Source: a virus
Virus record (IMG/VR): IMGVR_UViG_3300027749_000039
Span: 96,001 to 160,000 of that record
Strand: one strand, 5' to 3'
Length of the DNA stretch: 64,000 nucleotides
The position numbers and the translations under genes are program-made. Below the pieces are notes generated by a model. That model saw only the letters and a list, made by a program, of their open reading frames with translations, was not told the DNA's origin and made no database searches. Every line of letters begins with the position of its first letter. The first letter of the stretch is position 1. This document shows, in pieces, positions 33,434 through 61,910 of the stretch.

Positions 33434-33505
33434 AGCGGGATAGAGCAGTGGTAGCTCGCAAGGCTCATAACCTTGAGGTCATTGGTTCGAATCCAGTTCC
33501 TGCTT
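33434..33505 (+). tRNA. tRNA-Met(CAT), initiator-like
   Basis: Cloverleaf; CAAGG-CTCATAA-CCTTG; fMet-like GAGCAG.GGTAGCTCG D arm. Confidence 0.88.
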
Positions 33506-33520
33506 CAAAAAAAGACATAT

Positions 33521-33592
33521 TGCGGAGTAGAGCAGTGGTAGCTCGCAAGGCTCATAACCTTGAGGTCGTTGGTTCGAATCCAGCCTCCGTTA
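33521..33592 (+). tRNA. tRNA-Met(CAT), initiator-like (U1.U72 mismatch)
   Basis: Near-duplicate of 33434..33505 with an unpaired 1:72 position. Confidence 0.88.
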
Positions 33593-33631
33593 CTAAAAAA
33601 TTAAAAACAATAACAACTTAAAAATTATTTT

Positions 33632-33721
33632 ATGAAACATTTCAGCTCACATAAACATTCGTTTAAATTCTGGTTTAGCAATCAGGGTTCGGTAGAGTTT
33701 TGTTTCAAAAATGCTTCATAA
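33632..33721 (+). CDS. Leader peptide 1, MKHFSSHKHSFKFWFSNQGSVEFCFKNAS (putative attenuator)
   Basis: A-rich start context; codons 2-16 are only K/H/F/S/W, matching the downstream tRNAs. Confidence 0.8.
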   Translation: MKHFSSHKHSFKFWFSNQGSVEFCFKNAS

Positions 33722-34370: not shown

Positions 34371-35249
34371 ATGGGTGCGAATTCAAAAGAATGGACAGAA
34401 AAGGAAAAAGAAATACTTTTTAAATATTTTCCGAGTATGGGTAGTAATTATTGTTCAGAATTAACAGGAAGAACAAAAAGAGCTTGTCAAGAAATGGCAA
34501 AAAAATTAAAATTGAAGAGAGATTTAGATAAGTATGAAGATAAAGAAAAATTAGAGGAGTTAGTTAAAGGTTGTAAATCATATACAGAATGTGTAATAAA
34601 ATTGGGGTTATCTCCCAGATGTTCTGGTAATTTTCAGACTATCAAAAAATATATCACAATATATAATATAGATATTTCACATTTTGAAAATGGATTTCAA
34701 ATAGGCAACAAACCTCAAAATAAGAAAGAATTATCAGAAGTTTTAATAGAAAACTCTTTTTTTAGCAGAACTCATCTTAAAGAGAGACTATATAAAGAGG
34801 AATTAAAAAAGAAAGAATGTGAGATATGTGGAATTGGTGAAGATTGGTTTAATGGAACTAAAATAGTCCATATTTTAGACCATATAAATGGTGAGCCTTA
34901 TGATAATCGTCTTGAAAATTTAAGAATCGTTTGTCCTAATTGTAATTCAACATTAGAAACAAATTGTGTTGGGAATAAAGTTAATAAAATATATGATTCT
35001 AAAAAAGATGAATATAAAAGTGAAAAAACACATAAAAAATGTAATTGTGGTAAAATAATTTTGAAAGAAAGTAAATTTTGTTCAGAATGCAATGCCAAAA
35101 GTAAAAGAAAAATTATTAATAGACCAACATTTGAAGAATTAGTTAAGTTAATAGAAGAAAATGGTAATACTGGAACAGGTAAAATATACGGCGTTAGCGA
35201 AGCTGTCATAAGAAAATGGTTAAAACAATATAAAAATAAATTAGTATAG
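34371..35249 (+). mobile_element. Free-standing HNH homing endonuclease inside tRNA array 1
   Basis: CEIC...LDHINGEPYDNRLENLRIVCPNCNS and a C-terminal HTH. Confidence 0.88.
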
Positions 35250-35535: not shown

Positions 35536-35571
35536 ATGAAACAATATAAACAGATTAAACAAAAACAATAA
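35536..35571 (+). CDS. Mini leader peptide MKQYKQIKQKQ ahead of three tRNA-Lys genes
   Basis: A-rich start context, four AAA Lys codons, alternative hairpins downstream. Confidence 0.55.
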   Translation: MKQYKQIKQKQ

Positions 35572-35846: not shown

Positions 35847-37115
35847 ATGTTAGAAATAAAATTATTTAGGCAAAATAAGGACCTAATTATAGAAGGACTT
35901 AAAAAGAAAAATTTTAAGCAACTTAATTTAGTTGATGAAATTATTAAATTGGATGAAGATTTAAGAAAATTAAAACAGGAAACTGAAAATTTAACTTCTG
36001 TTATTAATAAAAATAATAGCGAAATTGCAAGATATATTAAAACAGATGCAGTTAAGGTAGAAAATATTAAAACTCATAATATTATTTTAAATGAAAAAAT
36101 TGAGGAATTAACTAATATACTAAATCAAACTGAAAACGAGTTATTGGATAATTTAATTCAATTACCAAATCTTCCAAATCAAATTGTAGAAATAGACAAT
36201 GGTAATGAAGCAACTAATGGTAATGTTATTATAAGAGAAAACTTAACTCAGTGTACACAAGGTAAACCTCATTGGGAAGTAATTAAAGATTTAAATATAG
36301 TTAGTTTTGAACTAGGAACTAAAATTACTGGTGCTGGGTTTCCTGTTTATATCGGAAAAGGCGCAAGATTACAAAGAGCTTTAATTCAATATTTTTTAGA
36401 TTATAATACTAATGCTGGTTATACAGAATATAATATACCATTAATGGTTAATTATGATTCTGCATATGGTACAGGACAACTCCCTGATAAAGAAGGTCAA
36501 ATGTATTATGCTGAAAAGGATAATTTATACTTAATTCCAACAGCAGAAGTTCCTTTAACTAATATCTTTAGAGATGAAATAGTTAATTTGCCCATAAAAA
36601 TGACAGGACATAGTGCTTGTTTTAGAAGAGAAGCTGGCGCACATGGTAAAGAAGTAAGAGGGTTAAATCGAGTTCATCAATTTGAAAAAGTTGAAATAGT
36701 TCAATTAGTTCAACCTGATAAAAGTTATGAAGTATTGGAAGAAATGGTTTTACATGTTGAGAACTTGATAAAAAGCTTAGAATTACCATATAGAATACTT
36801 AAATTAAGTGGCACAGATATGAGTTTTGCATCTGCTTTAACTTATGACTTTGAAGTATATAGTGCGGCTCAAGACAGATGGTTAGAAGTAAGTTCTGTGA
36901 GTAATTTTGAAACTTTCCAATCTAATCGTATGAAAATTAGATTTAAAGAAGATAAAAAGAACAAATTAGTTCATACTTTAAATGGAAGTTCTTTAGCATT
37001 ACCAAGAATAATGGCTTGCTTATTAGAAAATAATCAAACACATGAAGGTATAAAAATACCAGAAGTATTAATACCGTATTACGGTGACAAATTTTTAACA
37101 AATGGAAAATTATAA
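35847..37115 (+). CDS. serS: Seryl-tRNA synthetase
   Basis: N-terminal coiled coil, LIPTAEVPL, FRREAG, RVHQFEKVE, EVSSVSN and LNGSSLALPR. Confidence 0.95.
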   Translation: MLEIKLFRQNKDLIIEGLKKKNFKQLNLVDEIIKLDEDLRKLKQETENLTSVINKNNSEIARYIKTDAVKVENIKTHNIILNEKIEELTNILNQTENELLDNLIQLPNLPNQIVEIDNGNEATNGNVIIRENLTQCTQGKPHWEVIKDLNIVSFELGTKITGAGFPVYIGKGARLQRALIQYFLDYNTNAGYTEYNIPLMVNYDSAYGTGQLPDKEGQMYYAEKDNLYLIPTAEVPLTNIFRDEIVNLPIKMTGHSACFRREAGAHGKEVRGLNRVHQFEKVEIVQLVQPDKSYEVLEEMVLHVENLIKSLELPYRILKLSGTDMSFASALTYDFEVYSAAQDRWLEVSSVSNFETFQSNRMKIRFKEDKKNKLVHTLNGSSLALPRIMACLLENNQTHEGIKIPEVLIPYYGDKFLTNGKL

Positions 37116-37409: not shown

Positions 37410-37466
37410 ATGAAAACAATATCATCGTCTAGTCGCAGTAGTTTAACTTTGGAAATCCAGAGATGA
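37410..37466 (+). CDS. Leader peptide 2, MKTISSSSRSSLTLEIQR (putative attenuator)
   Basis: Block TCA TCG TCT AGT CGC AGT AGT; downstream tRNAs are Ser and Arg(ACG). Confidence 0.8.
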   Translation: MKTISSSSRSSLTLEIQR

Positions 37467-37738: not shown

Positions 37739-37744
37739 CTAATA

Positions 37745-37832
37745 GGAAAGTTGGCAGAGCGGTTTAATGCGCTGGCACTGAAGCCGGTGACTGGCAAAAG
37801 CCGGTCCGTGAGTTCGAATCTCATACTTTCTT
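37745..37832 (+). tRNA. tRNA-Ser-type with 6-nt anticodon loop ACTGAA (possibly degenerate)
   Basis: GGAAAGT acceptor, long variable arm and normal T arm; anticodon loop one nt short. Confidence 0.55.
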
Positions 37833-37836
37833 ATAT

Positions 37837-45902: not shown

Positions 45903-46127
45903 ATGAATAAAATAATTGATGAGTTTTTTGAGAATAATAAAACAACATATTTACAATGGCGTGAATATGATTCGGAAAAGTTAAAAACTGCTACTGAACA
46001 AAATCCTATTTATTCAGATATACACGAAATTACAATAGATAAGAATAATAATACAATAGTATATTGTGTTCATGATATGAAGGGTTCTATAATTAGAAGG
46101 TCAATTGGAACTATTGAAAATTTATAA
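45903..46127 (+). CDS. Hypothetical protein
   Basis: ORF track. Confidence 0.6.
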   Translation: MNKIIDEFFENNKTTYLQWREYDSEKLKTATEQNPIYSDIHEITIDKNNNTIVYCVHDMKGSIIRRSIGTIENL

Positions 46128-46199
46128 AAAATTTTTCTAAAAAAATTTTTTTATACAGATTTTTTTTGTATCTTTGTAAAAGAAAATAAAGATAATAAA

Positions 46200-46535
46200 A
46201 TGAATTACGCAGAAATTAGAGCAATAATACAAGAAGTATTTGATGATATAAACCAAATTGGATATTATTTTCAATATCCAACTTATGGTGAAGAAGAAAT
46301 TATAAAAGAACTAACTGAAAAATTAGGTGAGCATGAAAACGTTCATAATGACGGGTTCTATGATGGATATGATTGTCAATCAGTTCTATATTTCAAAGAT
46401 CACGATGTTTATATTCAGGCTGACGGATTTTATACTTCTTATAATGGGACTGAATGGGACAGGATCAATGAAGTTTTTCCTTATCAAAAAACCATAACTT
46501 GTTATTCTCTTAAAAAAGAAGAAAAGGGAGAATAA
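46200..46535 (+). CDS. Hypothetical phage protein (G.Y.SY.G.EWD motif)
   Basis: ORF track; promoter at 46169-46176. Confidence 0.7.
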   Translation: MNYAEIRAIIQEVFDDINQIGYYFQYPTYGEEEIIKELTEKLGEHENVHNDGFYDGYDCQSVLYFKDHDVYIQADGFYTSYNGTEWDRINEVFPYQKTITCYSLKKEEKGE

Positions 46536-46606
46536 AAAATTAATATATACTTTATAAAAATACGAAAAAAGCTTAAAATAATTTTTGCTATTTCAAAACT
46601 TTATCG

Positions 46607-46629
46607 TATATTTGCAATACAATAATCAA
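46607..46629 (+). promoter_or_regulatory. Promoter/TSS region of tRNA operon 3
   Basis: TATATTTG -7 element; 19 nt (46611-46629) identical to 61721-61739. Confidence 0.72.
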
Positions 46630-46661
46630 CAAACAAACAAAACATTTTAAATAAAAATTTT

Positions 46662-46760
46662 ATGAAAACTACAATAATCACAACACAAGTAATCGGCGCA
46701 TATGAAGCGGGTTATGCCTATGAGGGAACATCTCATGGAGTTGGTAAGTTATGTAGTTAA
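46662..46760 (+). CDS. Leader peptide 3, MKTTIITTQVIGAYEAGYAYEGTSHGVGKLCS (putative attenuator)
   Basis: Block GAYEAGYAYEG; downstream tRNAs are Tyr, Glu, Ala and Gly. Confidence 0.82.
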   Translation: MKTTIITTQVIGAYEAGYAYEGTSHGVGKLCS

Positions 46761-46782
46761 TCATAAAAAGATATAATTACTT

Positions 46783-46817
46783 AAAGCATCCAACTCAAAA
46801 AGTTGGATGCTTTTTTT
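46783..46817 (+). terminator. Attenuator terminator 3
   Basis: AAAGCATCCAACT-CAAAA-AGTTGGATGCTTTTTTT. Confidence 0.9.
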
Positions 46818-46827
46818 ATGTTAAATT

Positions 46828-46911
46828 GGGAGTGTTGGGCAATTGGCTGGCCCGCCTGACTGTAAATCAGGTTCTTCGGACATGGGGGTTCAAATCCCTC
46901 CACTCTCACCA
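46828..46911 (+). tRNA. tRNA-Tyr(GTA), G1:C72
   Basis: CCTGA-CTGTAAA-TCAGG; variable arm; ACCA end. Confidence 0.92.
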
Positions 46912-46915
46912 AATT

Positions 46916-46995
46916 CGTTCAGTTGTCTAGCGGCAATGACTGGGAGCTGTAACCTCCCCTCTTCGGATTCGTAGGTTCGAGTCCTACCTGAACGA
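46916..46995 (+). tRNA. tRNA-Tyr(GTA), C1:G72
   Basis: GGGAG-CTGTAAC-CTCCC; acceptor CGTTCAG/CTGAACG; A73. Confidence 0.85.
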
Positions 46996-46996
46996 C

Positions 46997-47091
46997 AAAA
47001 ATATACTGGTATTATTAACAGCGGGATAGATTACCAAATAGGAGGTGAAAGTCCTTATGACCGTACAGAGAAAGGCTTTGTGTATATTTTT
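46997..47091 (+). ncRNA. Unassigned four-way-junction RNA between tRNAs
   Basis: AAAAATATAC/GTATATTTTT closing stem; TGGTA/TACCA; AGGA-GGTGAAAG-TCCT; ACAGAG/CTTTGT. Confidence 0.4.
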
Positions 47092-47095
47092 ATCT

Positions 47096-47167
47096 GCTAC
47101 CATAGATTAATCGGTAAATCGTGGCTCTTTCACAGCCAAGTAGGGGGATCGTAACCCCTTGGTAGTA
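47096..47167 (+). tRNA. tRNA-Glu(TTC)
   Basis: TGGCT-CTTTCAC-AGCCA; T loop ATCGTAA. Confidence 0.82.
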
Positions 47168-47174
47168 CAAACAA

Positions 47175-47246
47175 GGCCCAGTAGATTACTGGCTAAATCG
47201 TTGCACTTTCACTGCAAAGAAGACGGATCGAACCCGTTCTGGGCTG
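47175..47246 (+). tRNA. tRNA-Glu(TTC)
   Basis: TTGCA-CTTTCAC-TGCAA. Confidence 0.85.
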
Positions 47247-47253
47247 CAAGGGT

Positions 47254-47277
47254 GTTAGTTATTCCGGAATAACTAAC
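47254..47277. repeat. Perfect 24-nt palindrome
   Basis: GTTAGTTATTCC|GGAATAACTAAC. Confidence 0.8.
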
Positions 47278-47281
47278 TTTA

Positions 47282-47347
47282 GTATAGTAGCTCAATTGGT
47301 AGAGCGGTGGTGATTCACAGGCAGTAGGTTCAAAACCTATCTATACA
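47282..47347 (+). pseudogene. tRNA with collapsed anticodon arm
   Basis: Canonical AGCTCAATTGGTAGAGC D arm and a T arm; anticodon arm reduced to GTG-GTGATT-CAC. Confidence 0.55.
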
Positions 47348-47359
47348 CAAAATTAACAA

Positions 47360-47433
47360 GTCAGGTTTGACAAGCGGCTTAAGTCACCTTCCTCTCAAGA
47401 AGGACATCATGGGTTCGAATCCCATACTTGATT
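47360..47433 (+). tRNA. tRNA-Glu(CTC)
   Basis: CCTTC-CTCTCAA-GAAGG. Confidence 0.82.
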
Positions 47434-47492
47434 CACAGAAAAGGTTATCTGGGTGGATTTTTCAACAGAAAATGAAACTCCGAGCCTTAGAC

Positions 47493-47566
47493 GGGGCGGC
47501 ATGTACCAAGGCTGGCGAAGAACACTTGCAATGTTCCTGTGGTGAGTTCAATTCTCATCCGCTCCA
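47493..47566 (+). tRNA. tRNA-Ala(TGC)
   Basis: GAACA-CTTGCAA-TGTTC; G3:U70 and A73. Confidence 0.8.
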
Positions 47567-47615
47567 CGAAGTGAAGGAAAACACGATAAACCCGTCTGCT
47601 AGGACGTAAAATAAC

Positions 47616-47687
47616 GCAGAGATAGTATAACGGTTATTACACTGGCTTGCCAAGCCGGATATGGGAGTTCGATTCTCCTTCTCTGCT
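47616..47687 (+). tRNA. tRNA-Gly(GCC)
   Basis: CTGGC-TTGCCAA-GCCGG; U73. Confidence 0.88.
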
Positions 47688-47744
47688 CTAAAAATGGTTC
47701 GACCGCTAAATCGAGTTAGTGAAAATCTACATTCGAACCATATG

Positions 47745-47818
47745 AGGGGGATTAGTTGTAATTGGCAAAACGTGGGCTTTGCAAGTCTGAGTTGCCGGAT
47801 CGTTGCCGGCATCCTCCA
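47745..47818 (+). tRNA. tRNA-Ala(TGC), A1.C72 mismatch
   Basis: TTTGCAA loop, G3:U70, weak anticodon stem. Confidence 0.65.
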
Positions 47819-47874
47819 CAACAAAATAGTGATAGAGCGGCTTTGAACTTTTATATATAAAAATAAAAGTTCAA

Positions 47875-48510
47875 TTGCATCACACAATTTATAAAATAAC
47901 CAATTTAATAAATGGCAAAATTTATATTGGAAAACACTCAACAAATGATATTAAAGATAACTACTACGGTAGTGGGAAATTAATTAAAAGTGCTATAGAA
48001 AAATATGGTATTATTAATTTCACAAAAGAAATTTTGTTTAATTTTCAATCAGAGGAAGAAGCTTATGCCAAGGAAAAGGAAATAGTAAATGAAAGTTTCA
48101 TAAAAAGAAAAGATGTTTATAACCTTATAATAGGGGGTGATACATTTGAAGCTATTAATTCCAATTTAGAATTAAGAAAAGCTAAAAATAAGAAAGCTGC
48201 ATTAATTATGAATTCTGTAAATTGGAATAATCCAGAATTTAGAAAAAGGCAAACTGATAAAATGATATTACAAAATAAAAAATTGCATAAAGAAGGAATT
48301 CTTAAAAGTGTTGATTGGACCGGAAAGAAACATAAGGATGAAAGCAAAGAGAAAATGAGGGAAAAGGCAAAATTGAGAATAGGTGATAAAAACTCTTCAT
48401 TTGGAACTTGTTGGATATATAATGAAAATGAAAGTAAGAAAATAAAAAAAGAAGATTTAGAAAACTACTTATCTATTGGATGGATAAAAGGTAGAAAAAT
48501 TAAATTTTAA
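47875..48510 (+). mobile_element. GIY-YIG homing endonuclease inside tRNA array 3
   Basis: TIYKITNLINGKIYIGKH, YYGSG and NUMOD3-like GKKHKDESKEKM; TTG start. Confidence 0.88.
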
Positions 48511-48513
48511 TAA

Positions 48514-48596
48514 GCGAGTATAGTATAACGGAGGCGAAAGCCGTATTATGCTGGTCTTCCAAACCGGATATGAGAGTTCGATTCTCTCTACTCGCT
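48514..48596 (+). tRNA. tRNA-Gly(TCC) with GGC-GAAA-GCC hairpin inserted in the D loop
   Basis: CTGGT-CTTCCAA-ACCGG; U73. Confidence 0.8.
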
Positions 48597-48603
48597 CTAA
48601 AAT

Positions 48604-48678
48604 GGGTTGTATATTTTAATGATAGAATGCTGCGGGATTATAAAGCGGCGGTGTGAGACCAATTCTCATTATAACCCC
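48604..48678 (+). pseudogene. Degenerate tRNA (11-nt anticodon loop)
   Basis: GGGTTGT/ATAACCC acceptor; GCTGC/GCGGC stem; T loop ACCAATT. Confidence 0.45.
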
Positions 48679-48719
48679 AAATGAAGGAAATTCTTCATTA
48701 TAAAAATAAAAATTAAAGT

Positions 48720-49019
48720 ATGTCGGATCGAAGATATTATGTCTTTATGAAAAGCGGTAGAAAGTTCTGCGTAGAAGAATATGGTAAGACATATACTGAT
48801 TGGGGTAATTATAACCCAGCTACGAAGAAGATTGAAAAGGTTGCATCTAAATCAAGTGAGATTATTGATGAACATAACACTAAAATAACGAAAGAAAACG
48901 GATATAAGAATATCTGTATGTTAGAAACTGGTACATCACCAATGGCTTATATTGAAGCTATTGATACAAGTGGTGTAGAAAGATTTGAAGGTGTAGATTT
49001 TGTTACATACGAAGATTAA
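48720..49019 (+). CDS. Hypothetical phage protein
   Basis: ORF track. Confidence 0.7.
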   Translation: MSDRRYYVFMKSGRKFCVEEYGKTYTDWGNYNPATKKIEKVASKSSEIIDEHNTKITKENGYKNICMLETGTSPMAYIEAIDTSGVERFEGVDFVTYED

Positions 49020-49020
49020 T

Positions 49021-49179
49021 ATGGAATTAAATATTCTAATAGAAAAGATTAAATCTAAAATTGATTTAACAGAAGAGGAAGAAATATATTATTTAGTTAA
49101 TGGCTTAAAAATGAGCGAAAAAGAAGCTAAAAGAATTGTATACCGACCTAAACCTGTAATAGGAAAATTAATAGATTAA
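49021..49179 (+). CDS. Small hypothetical protein (52 aa), not in track
   Basis: Hand-read MELNILIEKIKSKIDLTEEEEIYYL... Confidence 0.55.
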   Translation: MELNILIEKIKSKIDLTEEEEIYYLVNGLKMSEKEAKRIVYRPKPVIGKLID

Positions 49180-49218
49180 TTAGAAATATATTTGTAAAAA
49201 GATATATTTCTACTACAT

Positions 49219-49265
49219 GCCGGTTCAAGGAACGCACACCCTGGCGAGGGTGCCTACCGGCTCCA
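49219..49265 (+). ncRNA. 47-nt CCA-terminated minihelix abutting tRNA-Ala
   Basis: GCCGGT/ACCGGC stem, inner ACCCT/AGGGT hairpin, TCCA end. Confidence 0.45.
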
Positions 49266-49338
49266 GGGGGATTAGCTCATTTGGTAGAGCATTTGTATGG
49301 CATACAAAAGGCGACCGGTTCGATTCCGGTATCCTCCA
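49266..49338 (+). tRNA. tRNA-Ala(GGC)
   Basis: TTTGT-ATGGCAT-ACAAA; G3:U70. Confidence 0.88.
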
Positions 49339-49365
49339 CTAAAAAATATAAAACAAATAAATAGA

Positions 49366-49416
49366 ATGAAAACTAAAAACATGGGCGGAAAGACGCTGGA
49401 CGCATTAATGTCGTAG
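49366..49416 (+). CDS. Short upstream ORF MKTKNMGGKTLDALMS overlapping the AlaRS 5' end
   Basis: A-rich start context; ATGAAAACT start like the other leaders. Confidence 0.45.
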   Translation: MKTKNMGGKTLDALMS

Positions 49417-49460
49417 AAGAGTATAAAACTTTCTGCGACGGTAAACAAATAAACTTCAAA

Positions 49461-50240
49461 ATGGACGATAACGTCCGCTCCTATGACGAAACAACTCTGT
49501 TTTGTCCTGCAGGAATGTCCCAATACAAATCCTTATTTAAGGATATTAACCACAAGGGAACAATAAGTAATATACAATCTTGCCTTCGTTTAAACGATAT
49601 GGAAGAAATAGGTGATGGGAGCCACCTATTGTATTTTAACATGATTGGATTATTCTCGTTTAGAGAAATGACTATACAAGAAGCTATTGACTTTTGGATG
49701 GAATTTCTCTATAAAATCAATTGTATTCCTGATTACATTACTATTCATCCTGATAAACCTGAATGGCGAGATTTCTATTCTAATTATAATGTTGAAATAC
49801 GTTATGATGAAGGGTGTATATGGAGTGACGGAGGTATCGGTGGCTACTGCACTGAATTTTACAAGGATGATATTGAAATAGGTAATATAGTTAATCCGTT
49901 AGGTACTTGTATTGACGCAGGGTGGGGTTTGGAACGTATAGAAATGGTTTTATATAATGAGAGAAAAACAAAAGAAGAAACCTTAATTAATACAATTATG
50001 AAAATGATTGAAAGCGGATTTACACCTACTTACAATAAACAAGGTTCTCTTTTGCGAAAACTTTTAAGAATTTGTTATTTAGAAAAAATAGAAGTTCCGC
50101 ATCAATTTTACCAAGATGAAATTTTGAGACAACAAAAAATTATAGAAAAATATAATAGAATGAAAGAGAAACCTAAGTTTAAAAATATGTCTAAGGAGTT
50201 TTGGTTTAATACTCTTGGTATTGATATAGATTTAATGTGA
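49461..50240 (+). CDS. alaS: Minimal alanyl-tRNA synthetase (aminoacylation core only)
   Basis: TTLFCPAGMSQYK, IQSCLRLND, FNMIGLFSF, WSDGGIGGYCTEF, EIGNIV and IDAGWGLERI. The frame is open upstream to 49377, so the true start may be earlier. Confidence 0.82.
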   Translation: MDDNVRSYDETTLFCPAGMSQYKSLFKDINHKGTISNIQSCLRLNDMEEIGDGSHLLYFNMIGLFSFREMTIQEAIDFWMEFLYKINCIPDYITIHPDKPEWRDFYSNYNVEIRYDEGCIWSDGGIGGYCTEFYKDDIEIGNIVNPLGTCIDAGWGLERIEMVLYNERKTKEETLINTIMKMIESGFTPTYNKQGSLLRKLLRICYLEKIEVPHQFYQDEILRQQKIIEKYNRMKEKPKFKNMSKEFWFNTLGIDIDLM

Positions 50241-50322
50241 TTTAACTGACTTAGATTTATTATTAGATAGTTCAAACTTACTTCTTTTCTCTTATATAAA
50301 AAAGAAAAGAAAAGAATAAATT

Positions 50323-51051
50323 ATGAAAGAAAAAGAGTTATACAAAACCATTGATATAATTGATGATTCTCGTTTGGAAATAATAATTGAAGTTAAAAAT
50401 GGTATAGAAGGTATGGTGATACATCCTGATTTGGCTATACATAAGTGTATAGAAATGATATCTAAATATGCCATAATCAAAGTTTTGTCCGGAAAAAATG
50501 GAATAAAACTTATAGATGGTGAGGAAAATAGATATCCTGATATACCAATAATTGTGGATTTATTTAATAATAAAATTGCTATTGATGTTAAGTCAAGCAA
50601 TTCCACTAGTGGTAAAGGATTATCAGGTAATGATGCTTTTTCGTTTATTAATTTCGAAACTTCTAGATATAATATATTTGGAGAAGAATTTATTATAGGT
50701 GTTGTTTATGAAGTTATAAATGGTAGATTATATCCACAAGATGTGATTTTTGATAAATTACATTTTTTAGTGGCTAAAAGGAAAAAAGATGGATTTATGT
50801 CTCATGGTGGTGATAAATTTAATTCTAGGATGTTATCTATTAATAGGTATAATAATGGTGATTATGATTATTTAAGTAGAGAAGAATTATTAGAAGGATG
50901 TAAAAAAACTTACAAATTCTTATTAGAAAATCCTAAATTTCGTAATTTAGTTAATGATGTTAAGATTAAAAAACCAAAGAAAAATAGTAATATATATGAT
51001 CCAGTTGGTGATTATACGAAATTGCTATTAGAAAAATTAGAAATGTTATAA
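50323..51051 (+). CDS. PD-(D/E)xK restriction-endonuclease-like protein
   Basis: YPD...AIDVKSS catalytic pattern; upstream hairpin with TATATA loop. Confidence 0.6.
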   Translation: MKEKELYKTIDIIDDSRLEIIIEVKNGIEGMVIHPDLAIHKCIEMISKYAIIKVLSGKNGIKLIDGEENRYPDIPIIVDLFNNKIAIDVKSSNSTSGKGLSGNDAFSFINFETSRYNIFGEEFIIGVVYEVINGRLYPQDVIFDKLHFLVAKRKKDGFMSHGGDKFNSRMLSINRYNNGDYDYLSREELLEGCKKTYKFLLENPKFRNLVNDVKIKKPKKNSNIYDPVGDYTKLLLEKLEML

Positions 51052-51119
51052 TTTAAATTAGAAACGGAATAGTTATCCGTTTCTTTTTTTTTTATATATA
51101 ATAAAAAATATATATTTTA

Positions 51120-51560
51120 ATGAAATTTGTGAAAACATTTGAAACCTTTAATTATACTCCAAATAATTATGAATATGATTATACCGAAGCTAATGAAGAT
51201 GATATAGAAATTGCGGAACGTGAAGGATATTTAAAATCAATGAGTAATGATTTATTTAAAAGATTAGTAAATGTAGTTTCTTCTAATTCTGGTGATACTG
51301 AAACTAATAATTATAAATTGGAACATGACGGGTATTATTCATATTTTAATTATAATTTTAGAAAAGATGATATAACTGGTCAAGGTAAAATAAATGATTG
51401 GTATTTTTCAATCTATCTTATAATGGATGATTCATTTATTTTATCTTATAAAGACGAAGAAACCGATGAAATTAAATGTTTTCACTGCTCTAATTATTTA
51501 AGCTTAATTAAGTGTATGAAGGATAAACAAGATGAAACAAGAGGTATTTATATTAAATAA
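51120..51560 (+). CDS. Protein with MKFVKTFETF N-terminal motif
   Basis: ORF track. Confidence 0.65.
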   Translation: MKFVKTFETFNYTPNNYEYDYTEANEDDIEIAEREGYLKSMSNDLFKRLVNVVSSNSGDTETNNYKLEHDGYYSYFNYNFRKDDITGQGKINDWYFSIYLIMDDSFILSYKDEETDEIKCFHCSNYLSLIKCMKDKQDETRGIYIK

Positions 51561-53460: not shown

Positions 53461-53534
53461 GCAAGATTCGCCTAGTTGGTATGGCATCACACTTCCAATG
53501 TGAAATAGGGCCGGTTCGAGACCGGCATCTTGCT
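53461..53534 (+). tRNA. tRNA-Gly(TCC), solitary
   Basis: TCACA-CTTCCAA-TGTGA; U73. Confidence 0.88.
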
Positions 53535-53608
53535 CAACACATATAATACGAAAATCTATTTGTTAATTCAAATAGATTTTCGTATTTTTGCTTATTAAAA
53601 GAAATTCT

Positions 53609-54682
53609 ATGAAATTTAACACATTTCCCGAAAATATAAATCCTTTCCAGAAAAAAGGTATAGTAAAGTTTGGTATCGATCCAACTGGCTCTGAGATGCA
53701 TTTAGGACACCTCTTACCTTTGAGAATTGTGAAAAAATTCAAAGCCGAAGGTTTCCCTATACATATTATACTAGGCACATTTACAGCTCAAATTGGAGAC
53801 GCTACTGGTAGAGATGCTACCCGTCCAATCTTAACAGAGCTAGAAACTATTGAAAATGGTGAAAAATTACTTCAACAAGTAAAAAGAATACTTGGTGATG
53901 ATATAATAATTCACAAAAATACAACTTGGCATAATGCAATGCAACTACCAGAGTTTATGAAGGTTATATCTAATTTTTCAGTTCAAAAGCTATTAAATAG
54001 AGATAATTTTGCTAAACGTATGGAAGCTCATGTGCCTATCGCTATGCACGAGTTGATGGGTCCAATACTACAAGGTATAGATTCATTTCAGTTAAATACT
54101 ACCGTAGAAGTTGGTGGTTCTGATCAATTATTTAATTTTGTAATTACAAGAGAAGTACAAGAATTATTGGGACAAACACCAGAAGTTTGTGTGCTATCTC
54201 CTGTTATTAACGGATTAGATGGACGTAAAATGTCTAAATCATTTGGTAATTGTATTTTTATTAATGATACCCCAGAAGATGTATTTGGTAAAGTTATGTC
54301 TATTTCAGATGAAACTATGAGAGAGTGGCTTCCTATATTTTTTGACGAAATAGATGCTACAAAACATCCAATGGTTCAAAAGAAAGAATTAGCATTTCGA
54401 ATAACACAGGAAATATGGAGTTTAGAAGCGGCGGAAACGGGTAAAGCACACTTCCAATCTGTTATACAAAGTAGGGAACTACCTGAAAATATGCCTGAAT
54501 TTGAAATAGGTAATTTAACTGAAATAGTTAGTAAAATTATTAATGGTTCTAAAACAGAAGCAAGAAGATTATTAACTTCAAATGCTGTTAAAATTAATGG
54601 TGAAAAAGTAGCAGAAGGGTTTGAAGTAAAGTCTGGTGATATAGTTAAAGTAGGTAAAAGAAATTTCGCAAAAATTATATGA
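53609..54682 (+). CDS. tyrS: Tyrosyl-tRNA synthetase (bacterial type, C-terminal S4 domain)
   Basis: GIDPT..MHLGH, IGD, QGIDS, GGSDQLFN and KMSKS; start ATG 53609 follows the promoter at 53583-53590. Confidence 0.92.
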   Translation: MKFNTFPENINPFQKKGIVKFGIDPTGSEMHLGHLLPLRIVKKFKAEGFPIHIILGTFTAQIGDATGRDATRPILTELETIENGEKLLQQVKRILGDDIIIHKNTTWHNAMQLPEFMKVISNFSVQKLLNRDNFAKRMEAHVPIAMHELMGPILQGIDSFQLNTTVEVGGSDQLFNFVITREVQELLGQTPEVCVLSPVINGLDGRKMSKSFGNCIFINDTPEDVFGKVMSISDETMREWLPIFFDEIDATKHPMVQKKELAFRITQEIWSLEAAETGKAHFQSVIQSRELPENMPEFEIGNLTEIVSKIINGSKTEARRLLTSNAVKINGEKVAEGFEVKSGDIVKVGKRNFAKII

Positions 54683-61808: not shown

Positions 61809-61910
61809 ATGAAAAACATTAATAGAAATAATAATACCATAAATTTAGTCATAAATAACGTGAATACGTTATGCGTGATTAGAGGAGTTATGGGGTTAAG
61901 TCTATTATGA
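61809..61910 (+). CDS. Leader peptide 4, MKNINRNNNTINLVINNVNTLCVIRGVMGLSLL (putative attenuator)
   Basis: Codons 3-25 use only N/I/R/T/L/V/C, the specificities of the downstream array. Confidence 0.85.
   Translation: MKNINRNNNTINLVINNVNTLCVIRGVMGLSLL

Follow-up and report, generated by a model that had tools for sequence, protein, structure and literature searches.

Enterobacterial attenuators place a short open reading frame (ORF) with clustered control codons between a promoter and an intrinsic terminator, and the position of the ribosome sets an alternative antiterminator helix. Multivalent examples include the ilvGMEDA leader (Ile, Leu and Val) and the thr leader (Thr and Ile), and trpL, hisL, leuL and pheL are further leaders of this kind. 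The known scope of the family is amino-acid biosynthesis or aminoacyl-tRNA synthetase (aaRS) genes. In the E. coli pheST attenuator, the pheM leader controls PheRS, a part of the aminoacylation machinery; it senses one amino acid and controls the synthetase only, with no tRNA gene behind it. T-box riboswitches, in contrast, bind uncharged tRNA directly and without translation, using Stem I with its specifier loop and the conserved T-box sequence. For tRNA genes, no published description of leader-peptide attenuation was found in the literature, and the E. coli tRNA-Phe gene pheV has neither a leader ORF nor a terminator in the roughly 100 nt upstream. The tRNA arrays of large phages, such as the Mahaphage clade (Al-Shayeb et al. 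2020, PMC7162821) and the phiCbK-like phages (Gill et al. 2012, PMC3556154), whose genomes and arrays are of the same kind as those considered here, are described as codon-usage supplements without regulation; the words 'attenuat' and 'leader' are absent from both papers.

The locus analyzed here lies in a window of 64,000 nucleotides taken from a 190-kb contig of an uncultured huge phage, in which a leader and a putatively switchable stop precede a block of Tyr, Glu, Gly and Ala tRNA genes. An earlier reading, made from the letters alone (the sequence-only reading), had proposed an attenuator at this site. This proposal is supported by the anatomy of the locus, by sister modules whose leaders track their own arrays, and by the geometry of the antiterminator. 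With a probability of roughly 0.8, the element is a leader-peptide transcription attenuator through which the tRNAs and an AlaRS-like gene would respond to demand. The upstream parts are as follows.

46584–46614, + strand: promoter of the Bacteroidota type, TTTG-19 nt-TAnnTTTG, by motif match
46662–46760, + strand: leader ORF of 32 codons, ATG AAA start, TAA stop at 46758–46760
46695–46727, + strand: control block, codons 12–22 (GAYEAGYAYEG), each codon read by an array tRNA
46719–46737, + strand: candidate pause or 1:2-type hairpin of 7 bp inside the end of the control block, from minimum free energy (MFE) folds without a ribosome
46737–46751, + strand: predicted antiterminator 5' strand, complementary to the terminator 5' arm, ending 7 nt before the stop codon
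46779–46796, + strand: predicted antiterminator 3' partner, overlapping the 3' half of the terminator 5' arm
46783–46820, + strand: strong intrinsic terminator, 13-bp stem (46783–46813), 5-nt loop, 7 U, hairpin dG -17.5
51060–51084, + strand: next strong terminator-like hairpin with a T-run

Promoter, leader ORF, terminator and tRNA array follow one another in the order and with the spacing that an attenuator requires. The promoter motif is complete and lies 48 nt 5' of the leader ATG, so that transcription would be expected to start at about 46620. On the + strand of the contig the motif occurs 29 times, against 4.5 copies expected, and in five of the seven modules of the contig it stands 48–85 nt 5' of the leader. 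No Shine-Dalgarno sequence is present on the 5' side of the leader, and the 5' UTR is A/T-rich and unstructured, as is usual in Bacteroidota. Only 8 nt separate the end of the terminator from the start of tRNA-Tyr (46828); consequently, there is no room for a separate promoter of the array. The hairpin at 51060–51084 is the probable end of the transcription unit. The genes behind the terminator, with tRNAs called by ARAGORN and an Rfam scan, are listed below.

46828–46996, + strand: two tRNA-Tyr(GTA), ARAGORN and Rfam
47096–47434, + strand: two tRNA-Glu(TTC), a tRNA-like element and tRNA-Glu(CTC), ARAGORN and Rfam
47281–47348, + strand: the tRNA-like element, its anticodon arm shortened as judged by reading the sequence
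47494–47568, + strand: atypical tRNA-Ala(TGC) with G3:U70, not called by ARAGORN; assigned by homology, Rfam match weak
47616–47819, + strand: tRNA-Gly(GCC) and tRNA-Ala(TGC), ARAGORN and Rfam
47875–48510, + strand: GIY-YIG (Seg-like) homing endonuclease gene, an insertion in the array, by blastn and profile match
48514–48596, + strand: tRNA-Gly(TCC) with a D-loop insertion, Rfam 52.5 bits
48605–48677, + strand: Ile-TAT-like tRNA with an enlarged anticodon loop, Rfam 29.1 bits
49266–49339, + strand: tRNA-Ala(GGC), ARAGORN and Rfam
49461–50240, + strand: homologue of the AlaRS catalytic core ('mini-AlaRS'), 259 aa, Pfam PF01411 tRNA-synt_2c, E 1e-17

Most tRNAs that had been read from the sequence (Tyr-GTA twice, Glu-TTC twice, Glu-CTC, Gly-GCC, Ala-TGC and Ala-GGC) were found by both ARAGORN and Rfam. 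Gly-TCC and the second Ala-TGC also proved to be real, if atypical: the former has its Rfam score, and the latter has a homologue in the relative L003 that ARAGORN calls as Ala-TGC. The endonuclease gene has blastn matches to annotated phage homing endonucleases and a weak SegE_GIY-YIG match. The mini-AlaRS, which was said to close the locus, is indeed the last recognisable gene of the gated unit. Its similarity to Aquifex AlaRS is clear over residues 31–152 and weaker over 206–248 and 279–302, including the GLER motif-3 region, and it adjoins tRNA-Ala in relatives too. The regulated set thus comprises about 12 tRNA genes and the AlaRS-core homologue.

The link between leader and array lies in the codons. 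All coordinates of the sequence-only reading were correct on re-checking, including those of the control block GGC GCA TAT GAA GCG GGT TAT GCC TAT GAG GGA. The array's own tRNAs read 13 of the 31 leader codons, compared with a background mean of 0.13 (p=0.005). With ARAGORN-called tRNAs only, the unbroken matched run is 10 codons long (p=0.0014, the comparison set being 1,455 small ORFs from the contig), and it reaches 11 once Gly-TCC at 48514 is included. The remaining 18 of 31 codons have no match in the array, and the Thr-rich N-terminus is among them. It had been claimed that the Thr/Ile-rich N-terminus is unmatched; this holds for the Thr part, which matches nothing, while the ATA codon may be matched by the Ile-TAT-like tRNA. 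The N-terminal motif, M followed by K/R/N, T/N and I/L, is common to nearly all leaders of the family, and it is therefore attributed to common ancestry or to an initiation feature rather than to a sensor. No such conservation extends to the C-terminal halves. The further proposal that synonymous codons are varied for isoacceptor-level sensing is borne out across the family, where 66 of 86 informative codons agree with the array although 46.3 would be expected, a total never attained in 100,000 simulations. This leader on its own agrees weakly, covering all seven anticodon classes (P=0.13) and using nine distinct codons (P=0.04).

The strongest evidence is comparative. The contig carries six further modules of the same build, seven in all, and four related phages, with LR745206.1 and LR756502.1 among the carriers of homologous modules, add 15, for a total of 22 in five phages. 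The leaders differ among modules, and each tracks the content of its own array. On the contig, no other permutation of leaders and arrays scores as well as the true pairing, whether a Lys candidate is included (40,320 permutations) or left out (5,040); in relatives the true pairing is the unique best of 120 and of 5,040, so that it ranks first in every phage tested (three). The combined leader-array match has a Fisher p of 1e-20 over the 22 modules in five phages, and of 5e-13 in the relatives alone. In LR745206.1 and LR756502.1 the unit is split into a Tyr/Glu array with a Y/E-rich leader and an Ile/Gly/Ala array with an I/G/A-rich leader. In the GC-rich relative L004, the array gains Pro and Asp tRNAs and the leader gains P and D. 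The modules L3 and L4 are paralogous, with near-identical promoter, UTR and terminator loop and an exchanged codon block. Several gated units are closed by aaRS genes: the unit of the Ser-rich leader 1 by SerRS, that of leader 5 by a class IIb aaRS, and the present one by the AlaRS core. This fits sensing of charged tRNA.

The antiterminator proposed earlier, GAGTTGG (46738–46744) paired with CCAACTC (46790–46796), is reproduced by the fold models in its outer helix, while its inner extensions are similar but not identical to those first drawn. The two strands are complementary, and in the MFE fold predicted before the 3' arm of the terminator has been transcribed they make up the outer helix; the antiterminator is the MFE structure of an RNA whose 3' end lies at the terminator loop. 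Its duplex with the terminator 5' arm has a dG of -11.6, sequesters about half of that arm, is equalled in 27 of 500 shuffles, and has p=0.047 in a separate shuffle test, which is marginally better than chance for this module on its own. In the sister modules L2 and L6 the duplex is not significant against shuffles. Across the 22 modules, however, the strand beats shuffles with a Fisher p of 2e-15 (3e-11 in the relatives alone), the complementarity recurs despite differing terminator sequences, and in all of them the strand is placed where the ORF ends. A few relatives have their best complementary strand ending 20–26 nt short of the stop codon, outside the footprint of a stop-centred ribosome. 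In masked folds, a ribosome at codons 13–22 leaves the antiterminator as the MFE structure, and one at the stop codon abolishes it. These models suggest the classical logic, in which a stalled ribosome permits the antiterminator and a ribosome at the stop leaves the terminator. The antiterminator forms in the ribosome-free fold too, and a clear counterpart of the trp anti-antiterminator is therefore lacking; the candidate hairpin at 46719–46737 directly adjoins the antiterminator strand.

These parts can be assembled into a mechanism. Because the leader is spelled in the codons of its tRNAs, the block is probably made only when those codons decode slowly. Host RNA polymerase would start at the Bacteroidota-type promoter and transcribe the 32-codon leader, which is presumably translated with transcription and translation coupled in a Bacteroidota host. 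Codons 12–22 would then sample Gly, Ala, Tyr and Glu codons. When the matching aminoacyl-tRNAs are plentiful, the ribosome would reach the stop codon and cover 46737–46751, the terminator would form, and transcription would end before tRNA-Tyr. When any of them is scarce, the ribosome would stall in the block, and the free strand could pair with the terminator 5' arm, permitting read-through into the Tyr, Glu, Gly, Ala and Ile-like tRNAs and the AlaRS-core gene. The outcome would be negative feedback on the supply of exactly the sampled tRNAs. The direction of this switch, from stalling to read-through, is suggested by geometry and modelled folding. The codon match and the terminator are equally compatible with the opposite sign, in which efficient leader translation gives read-through, for example through a trailing ribosome that pushes polymerase through the terminator, and stalling gives termination; the array would then be made only while decoding works. 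The ribosome-free antiterminator, by which the switch is not identical to trp, also leaves room for it. However, the strand masked by a terminating ribosome is the complement of the terminator arm, and a gap of 22 nt (11–33 nt in the family) separates the stop codon from that arm, so a terminating ribosome cannot mask the terminator itself. Positive feedback on tRNA supply also has no obvious use, and the opposite sign is considered very unlikely.

The remaining alternatives question whether and how the leader senses at all. Small ORFs are common in AT-rich DNA, with 1,740 of 10–40 codons on the contig, and the leader could be a small-protein gene or a chance ORF ahead of a leaky terminator, with the array expressed constitutively by read-through. 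Chance fails, however, to account for 22 modules in five phages that track their arrays, with unique best pairing in three, nor does it explain why complementarity to the module's own terminator arm recurs; this explanation is highly improbable. Sensing without translation, by pairing of codon-like triplets with the anticodons of uncharged tRNAs as in the T-box specifier codon, is suggested by the gene content, since tRNAs and an aaRS homologue are usual T-box territory in Firmicutes. It is hardly credible, given that neither a T-box nor any other Rfam family apart from tRNA appears in 46000–50500 at E up to 1, that each of the 22 elements is a true ORF that begins with ATG, carries the conserved N-terminal motif and closes in frame with a stop whose spacing to the terminator is fixed, and that eleven different consecutive triplets cannot each dock a tRNA. 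Finally, the attenuator may work as proposed while its released leader RNA or peptide acts in trans, like Sinorhizobium rnTrpL and peTrpL. Such trans-acting attenuator products have a reported precedent (PMC6614838 and PMC7298713), and the N-terminal motif is conserved across leaders, but the sequence indicates no target and the C-terminal halves diverge, which makes an added trans role quite improbable.

As an attenuator, the phage module shares with the enterobacterial leaders the layout of the short ORF, the ribosome-set antiterminator and the response of one leader to several amino acids, the last two being predicted here. Unlike them, it controls tRNA genes rather than biosynthetic enzymes, and therefore the sensed molecule and the product belong to the same class. 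It also differs in that 11 codons sample four amino acids and seven anticodon classes, in having no clear 1:2 anti-antiterminator, and in being carried by a phage, where duplication has made it a bank of modules. With tRNAs and an AlaRS core as its targets, it stands outside the known scope of the family. The Rfam scan of 46000–50500 at E up to 1 returned only tRNAs, with no match to His_leader, Thr_leader, Leu_leader, Trp_leader or other leader families. The likeness to pheST lies in the aaRS genes that end the phage units. Like the T-box of Firmicutes, the module would place aaRS and related genes under feedback, with the charging state of specific tRNAs deciding between terminator and antiterminator; T-box identity itself was rejected, as Stem I, its specifier loop and the T-box sequence are all absent and the same scan gave no T-box match.

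Taken together as a bank, the modules might form a distributed, isoacceptor-resolved sensor of the state of the host tRNA pool, a tentative idea held at below even odds. If so, each tRNA block and synthetase would be switched on only when its own codons fail to decode. Such failure could arise if host tRNA decays after shut-off, if the phage and its host differ in codon usage, or if anticodon-nuclease defences of the host cleave particular tRNAs. Attenuation would then be a phage counter-measure, reprogrammed by module duplication and rewriting of the codon block. As a separate observation, two tRNA blocks of phiCbK are preceded by small ORFs that are rich in the amino acids of the array and have annotated terminators behind them.

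The window is AT-rich (about 28% GC) and forms part of a contig of 190,602 bp. ARAGORN predicts 46 tRNA genes for the whole contig and 35 for the window. The module under study, termed L3, comprises a leader ORF, a terminator and a tRNA array, laid out in window coordinates as follows.

Features of module L3
46584-46614: promoter, a perfect Bacteroidota-type motif (TTTG, 19 nt, TAnnTTTG), 48 nt 5' of the ATG
46662-46760: leader ORF with an ATG AAA start, 32 codons and TAA at 46758-46760
46783-46813: 13-bp stem of a canonical intrinsic terminator with a 5-nt loop, followed by 7 T
46828-46996: two tRNA-Tyr-GTA
47096-47247: two tRNA-Glu-TTC
47281-47348: tRNA-like element with a truncated anticodon arm
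47360-47434: tRNA-Glu-CTC
47494-47568: atypical tRNA-Ala-TGC with an unusual D-region, missed by ARAGORN, homologous to a called Ala-TGC of a relative
47616-47688: tRNA-Gly-GCC
47746-47819: tRNA-Ala-TGC
47875-48510: GIY-YIG homing-endonuclease gene inside the array
48514-48596: tRNA-Gly-TCC with a hairpin of roughly 13 nt inserted in the D-loop
48605-48677: Ile-TAT-like tRNA with an 11-nt anticodon loop
48720-49179: two small uncharacterised ORFs
49266-49339: tRNA-Ala-GGC
49461-50240: AlaRS-like protein, 259 aa
51060-51084: next strong terminator after the AlaRS-like gene

The stop codon of the leader lies 22 nt from the terminator, and the first tRNA-Tyr begins at 46828, so that no space is left for a separate promoter between terminator and array. 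The promoter motif occurs 29 times on the + strand of the contig, against 4.5 expected, and stands 48-85 nt 5' of five of the seven leaders found there. The AlaRS-like protein aligns clearly with residues 31-152 of Aquifex AlaRS and more weakly with residues 206-248 (including the conserved GLER of motif 3) and 279-302; it thus corresponds to a compact catalytic core that lacks the editing and C-terminal domains. Several array spacers (47248-47280, 47689-47745, 49195-49265 and 49340-49460) form stable hairpins, with z-scores of -2.7 to -3.7 against shuffles, and may act as processing or stabilising elements of a polycistronic precursor.

The block at codons 12-22 (46695-46727), which a sequence-only reading had matched to the downstream tRNAs, was recovered with an identical sequence. 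Under standard wobble rules, the array's own tRNAs read 13 of the 31 L3 leader codons (p=0.005), whereas small ORFs of the contig average 0.13 on this measure. The unbroken matched run extends over 10 codons when only ARAGORN-called tRNAs are used (p=0.0014) and over 11 once the Gly-TCC at 48514 is included. The codons of an overlapping ORF in the +2 frame (46702-46776) were also compared with the array and did not match it.

Six further modules with the order and spacing of L3 are present on the contig. Three lie in the window, and three lie in the part of the contig past it, designated L017, in which position 1034 corresponds to contig position 161034.

Sister modules on the contig
L1, window 33632-33721: leader rich in His, Phe, Trp, Lys and Ser; followed by His, Trp, Phe and Lys tRNAs and SerRS
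L2, window 37410-37466: leader rich in Ser and Arg; followed by Ser-GCT, Arg-ACG, Ser-TGA and Ser-GGA
L4, window 61809-61910: leader rich in Asn, Ile, Arg, Thr, Leu, Val and Cys; followed by twelve matching tRNAs
L5, contig 161034-161102 (L017 1034-1102): leader rich in Leu and Met; followed by Leu-TAG, Leu-AAG, Leu-CAA and Met
L6, contig 171086-171181 (L017 11086-11181): leader rich in Asp, Gln and Pro; followed by three Asp tRNAs
L7, contig 172519-172569 (L017 12519-12569): leader rich in Gln; followed by three Gln tRNAs

Module L7 and probably also L1 lack their own promoter; they lie inside longer units and consequently would gate sub-arrays. Two tRNA-Met genes (33434-33593) are located between a promoter and leader 1 and are not gated. 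Full-length synthetase genes encode SerRS (35847-37115), TyrRS (53588-54682) and a class IIb enzyme of the Asp/Lys/Asn type (L017 2908-4098). The SerRS and class IIb genes end gated units whose leaders hold Ser and Asn codons without a corresponding tRNA in the unit, and the TyrRS gene is preceded by a lone Gly-TCC tRNA (53461-53535) and then a hairpin (53545-53586). Besides the GIY-YIG gene, two HNH homing-endonuclease genes are found inside tRNA arrays (window 34371-35249 and L017 1300-2133). A tRNA with a four-base anticodon (ctga), reported by ARAGORN at window 37744-37833, is most simply Ser-TGA with a misparsed loop, judging by its position and the content of the leader.

L3 and L4 are 78% identical in alignment. 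Near-identity extends over the promoter, 5' UTR, terminator loop and downstream T-run, whereas the codon blocks of the two are entirely different, which argues for spread by module duplication followed by rewriting of the block. Almost all leaders share an N-terminal motif consisting of M, then K/R/N, then T/N, then I/L. This motif accounts for the Thr/Ile-rich start of L3, described in the sequence-only reading as unmatched by the array.

When leaders and arrays of the contig are permuted, the true pairing is the single best of 40,320 arrangements with a possible eighth, Lys leader included, and the single best of 5,040 without it. This Lys candidate (35536-35571) is an 11-codon Lys/Gln-rich ORF located 32 nt 5' of three Lys tRNAs. 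A search for a U-tailed terminator at this locus found none, only a weak hairpin without a U-tract, and in the relatives the Lys tRNAs are part of the His/Phe/Trp unit. The candidate may be a degenerate leader, a different kind of leader or a chance ORF, and its status as an eighth leader is uncertain.

The nearest database relatives are LR745206.1 (634,780 bp) and LR756502.1 (642,428 bp). In Al-Shayeb et al. 2020, the genomes above 634 kb are all assigned to the Mahaphage clade and predicted to be Bacteroidetes phages (PMC7162821). The tRNA regions of these two genomes were compared together with those of UViG_3300009181_004073 and of UViG_3300033069_001734, a GC-rich 82-kb contig; the AlaRS-like proteins of the latter two are 68% and 56% identical, respectively, to that of the L3 unit. 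The four regions contain 15 further modules, whose leaders are not copies of that of L3 but follow each its own array. In LR745206.1 and LR756502.1 the unit is split: a Y/E-rich leader stands 5' of a Glu/Tyr array, and the Ile-TAT, Gly and Ala tRNAs have an I/G/A-rich leader of their own. In UViG_3300009181_004073, Glu, Tyr, Ile-TAT, Gly and Ala tRNAs follow a single leader that is rich in I, E, A, G and Y. In UViG_3300033069_001734 the array gains Pro, Asp and Met tRNAs and the leader gains P, D and M; this module was found by eye, as the detector script demands a strong T-run and misses it. The true pairing is the unique best of 120 permutations in LR745206.1 and of 5,040 in LR756502.1. Codons readable by the own array are enriched in all 22 leaders (Fisher p 1e-20 overall, 5e-13 for the relatives alone). 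The 7-kb contig of UViG_3300009181_004073 is a perfect inverted self-duplication with the array on both strands, most likely an assembly artefact.

The proposal that varied synonymous codons reflect isoacceptor-level sensing fares differently at the two scales. L3 on its own offers thin evidence: with its peptide and the contig codon usage taken as given, coverage of all seven anticodon classes is not significant (P=0.13), and the occurrence of 9 distinct codons among the 11 of the block is weakly so (P=0.04). Across the family the tuning is clear. Informative codons, 86 in all, are those for whose amino acid the array has tRNAs, but with anticodons that read only some of the synonymous codons. 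Of these, 66 are readable against 46.3 expected, a value that 100,000 simulations never reached. L5 provides the strongest individual example: its six Leu codons (CTA, TTG and CTT, two each) match Leu-TAG, Leu-CAA and Leu-AAG. In long ORFs, 67% of the Leu codons are TTA, a codon absent from L5; Leu-TAA belongs to array 4.

The proposed antiterminator, GAGTTGG with CCAACTC, reappears in the MFE structure of an RNA ending at the terminator loop, as GAGUUGG:CCAACUC with inner helices. Tyr/Glu-type leaders from four phages align with 60% column identity and are too diverged for a formal covariation test; therefore, per-module shuffle tests were used, in which the best strand between the start codon and the terminator 5' arm was compared with dinucleotide shuffles of that stretch. 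The L3 strand (46737-46751, dG -11.6) is equalled by 27 of 500 shuffles in one test and has p=0.047 in another. The pairing reaches p of 0.01 or less in L1, L4, L5 and L7 and is not significant in L2 and L6, and over 22 modules the Fisher p is 2e-15 (3e-11 for the relatives alone). The putative antiterminator of L3 is marginal by itself, and its support comes from the family. Terminator sequences vary among modules and the complementary strands vary along with them. The geometry does not vary: the end of the strand is separated from the stop codon by 3-26 nt, or the two overlap, and the stop codon precedes the terminator arm by 11-33 nt.

In constrained folds of L3, a 30-nt ribosome mask centred on codon 13, 17, 20 or 22 leaves the antiterminator in place, whereas a mask over the stop codon abolishes the helix and frees the arm. 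The two structures have similar stabilities (about -17 kcal/mol for the antiterminator fold and -17.5 for the terminator hairpin), and the outcome would depend on which strand becomes free first. Following classical logic, ribosome stalling would lead to read-through and completed translation to termination. A possible pause site is the 7-bp hairpin at 46719-46737. That the leader is translated, that this is coupled to transcription, which way the switch responds and what triggers it physiologically are predictions from the sequence.

The L3 element would work similarly to the established multivalent enterobacterial leaders (ilvGMEDA, thr) and the pheST attenuator; unlike trp, its fold has no evident anti-antiterminator. 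L3 also departs in one point of scope from the leader-attenuator family, because it controls tRNA genes. An Rfam scan with E up to 1 returned tRNAs only, with no Rfam leader family and no T-box. A possible attenuator-like leader ahead of E. coli tRNA-Phe genes was considered as a precedent and rejected: the region upstream of MG1655 pheV contains only a promoter-like stretch and lacks both a leader ORF and a terminator. The full-text literature searched, including PMC7162821 and PMC3556154, yielded no description of leader-peptide attenuation of tRNA genes; a 'tRNA operon' match in PMC3082878 proved irrelevant to it.

If a leader switch stands ahead of each array, the phage would gauge decoding speed codon by codon and top up only the tRNAs and synthetases in short supply. 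The tRNA genes of large phages, which number in the dozens, are currently explained in two ways: as supplements to codon usage that are expressed constitutively, or as decoys for defences that target tRNAs. Attenuation of the trp type, among the oldest regulatory paradigms, would then reach targets of a new class, where the product itself is the sensed molecule. Such a switch would explain the grouping of arrays by amino acid and make it directly possible to ask when and why the phage requires its tRNAs. Since the modules are short, modular and evidently easily reprogrammed (L3 and L4 differ mainly in the codon block), they could act as natural biosensors for the charging of individual tRNAs.

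Among the leaders, only leader 5 ends in TAG (L017 1100-1117), and a tRNA with a CUA anticodon, of the amber suppressor type, is encoded at contig 54412-54485, outside the window. If this TAG were read through, the ribosome would stop five codons further on, at a distance of about 10 nt from the terminator arm, and the attenuator could then behave differently late in infection.

The cultured Caulobacter phage phiCbK seems, judging from its sequence (JX100813), to carry cassettes similar to the L3 type, which would make the idea testable in a laboratory system. Its genome paper does not mention attenuation (PMC3556154). Two of the tRNA blocks of phiCbK were inspected as a partial check; the candidate cassettes lie at JX100813 49540-49769 and about 51341-51502. 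In the first (L016, the phiCbK piece, 2541-2770), the annotated 45-aa gp083, rich in Ser, Leu, Pro and Lys, is followed by an annotated rho-independent terminator and by Pro, Lys, Leu and Ser tRNAs. In the second (L016 4342-4503), a Q/F/V/I-rich mini-ORF and an annotated rho-independent terminator precede Phe, Val, Ile and Gln tRNAs.
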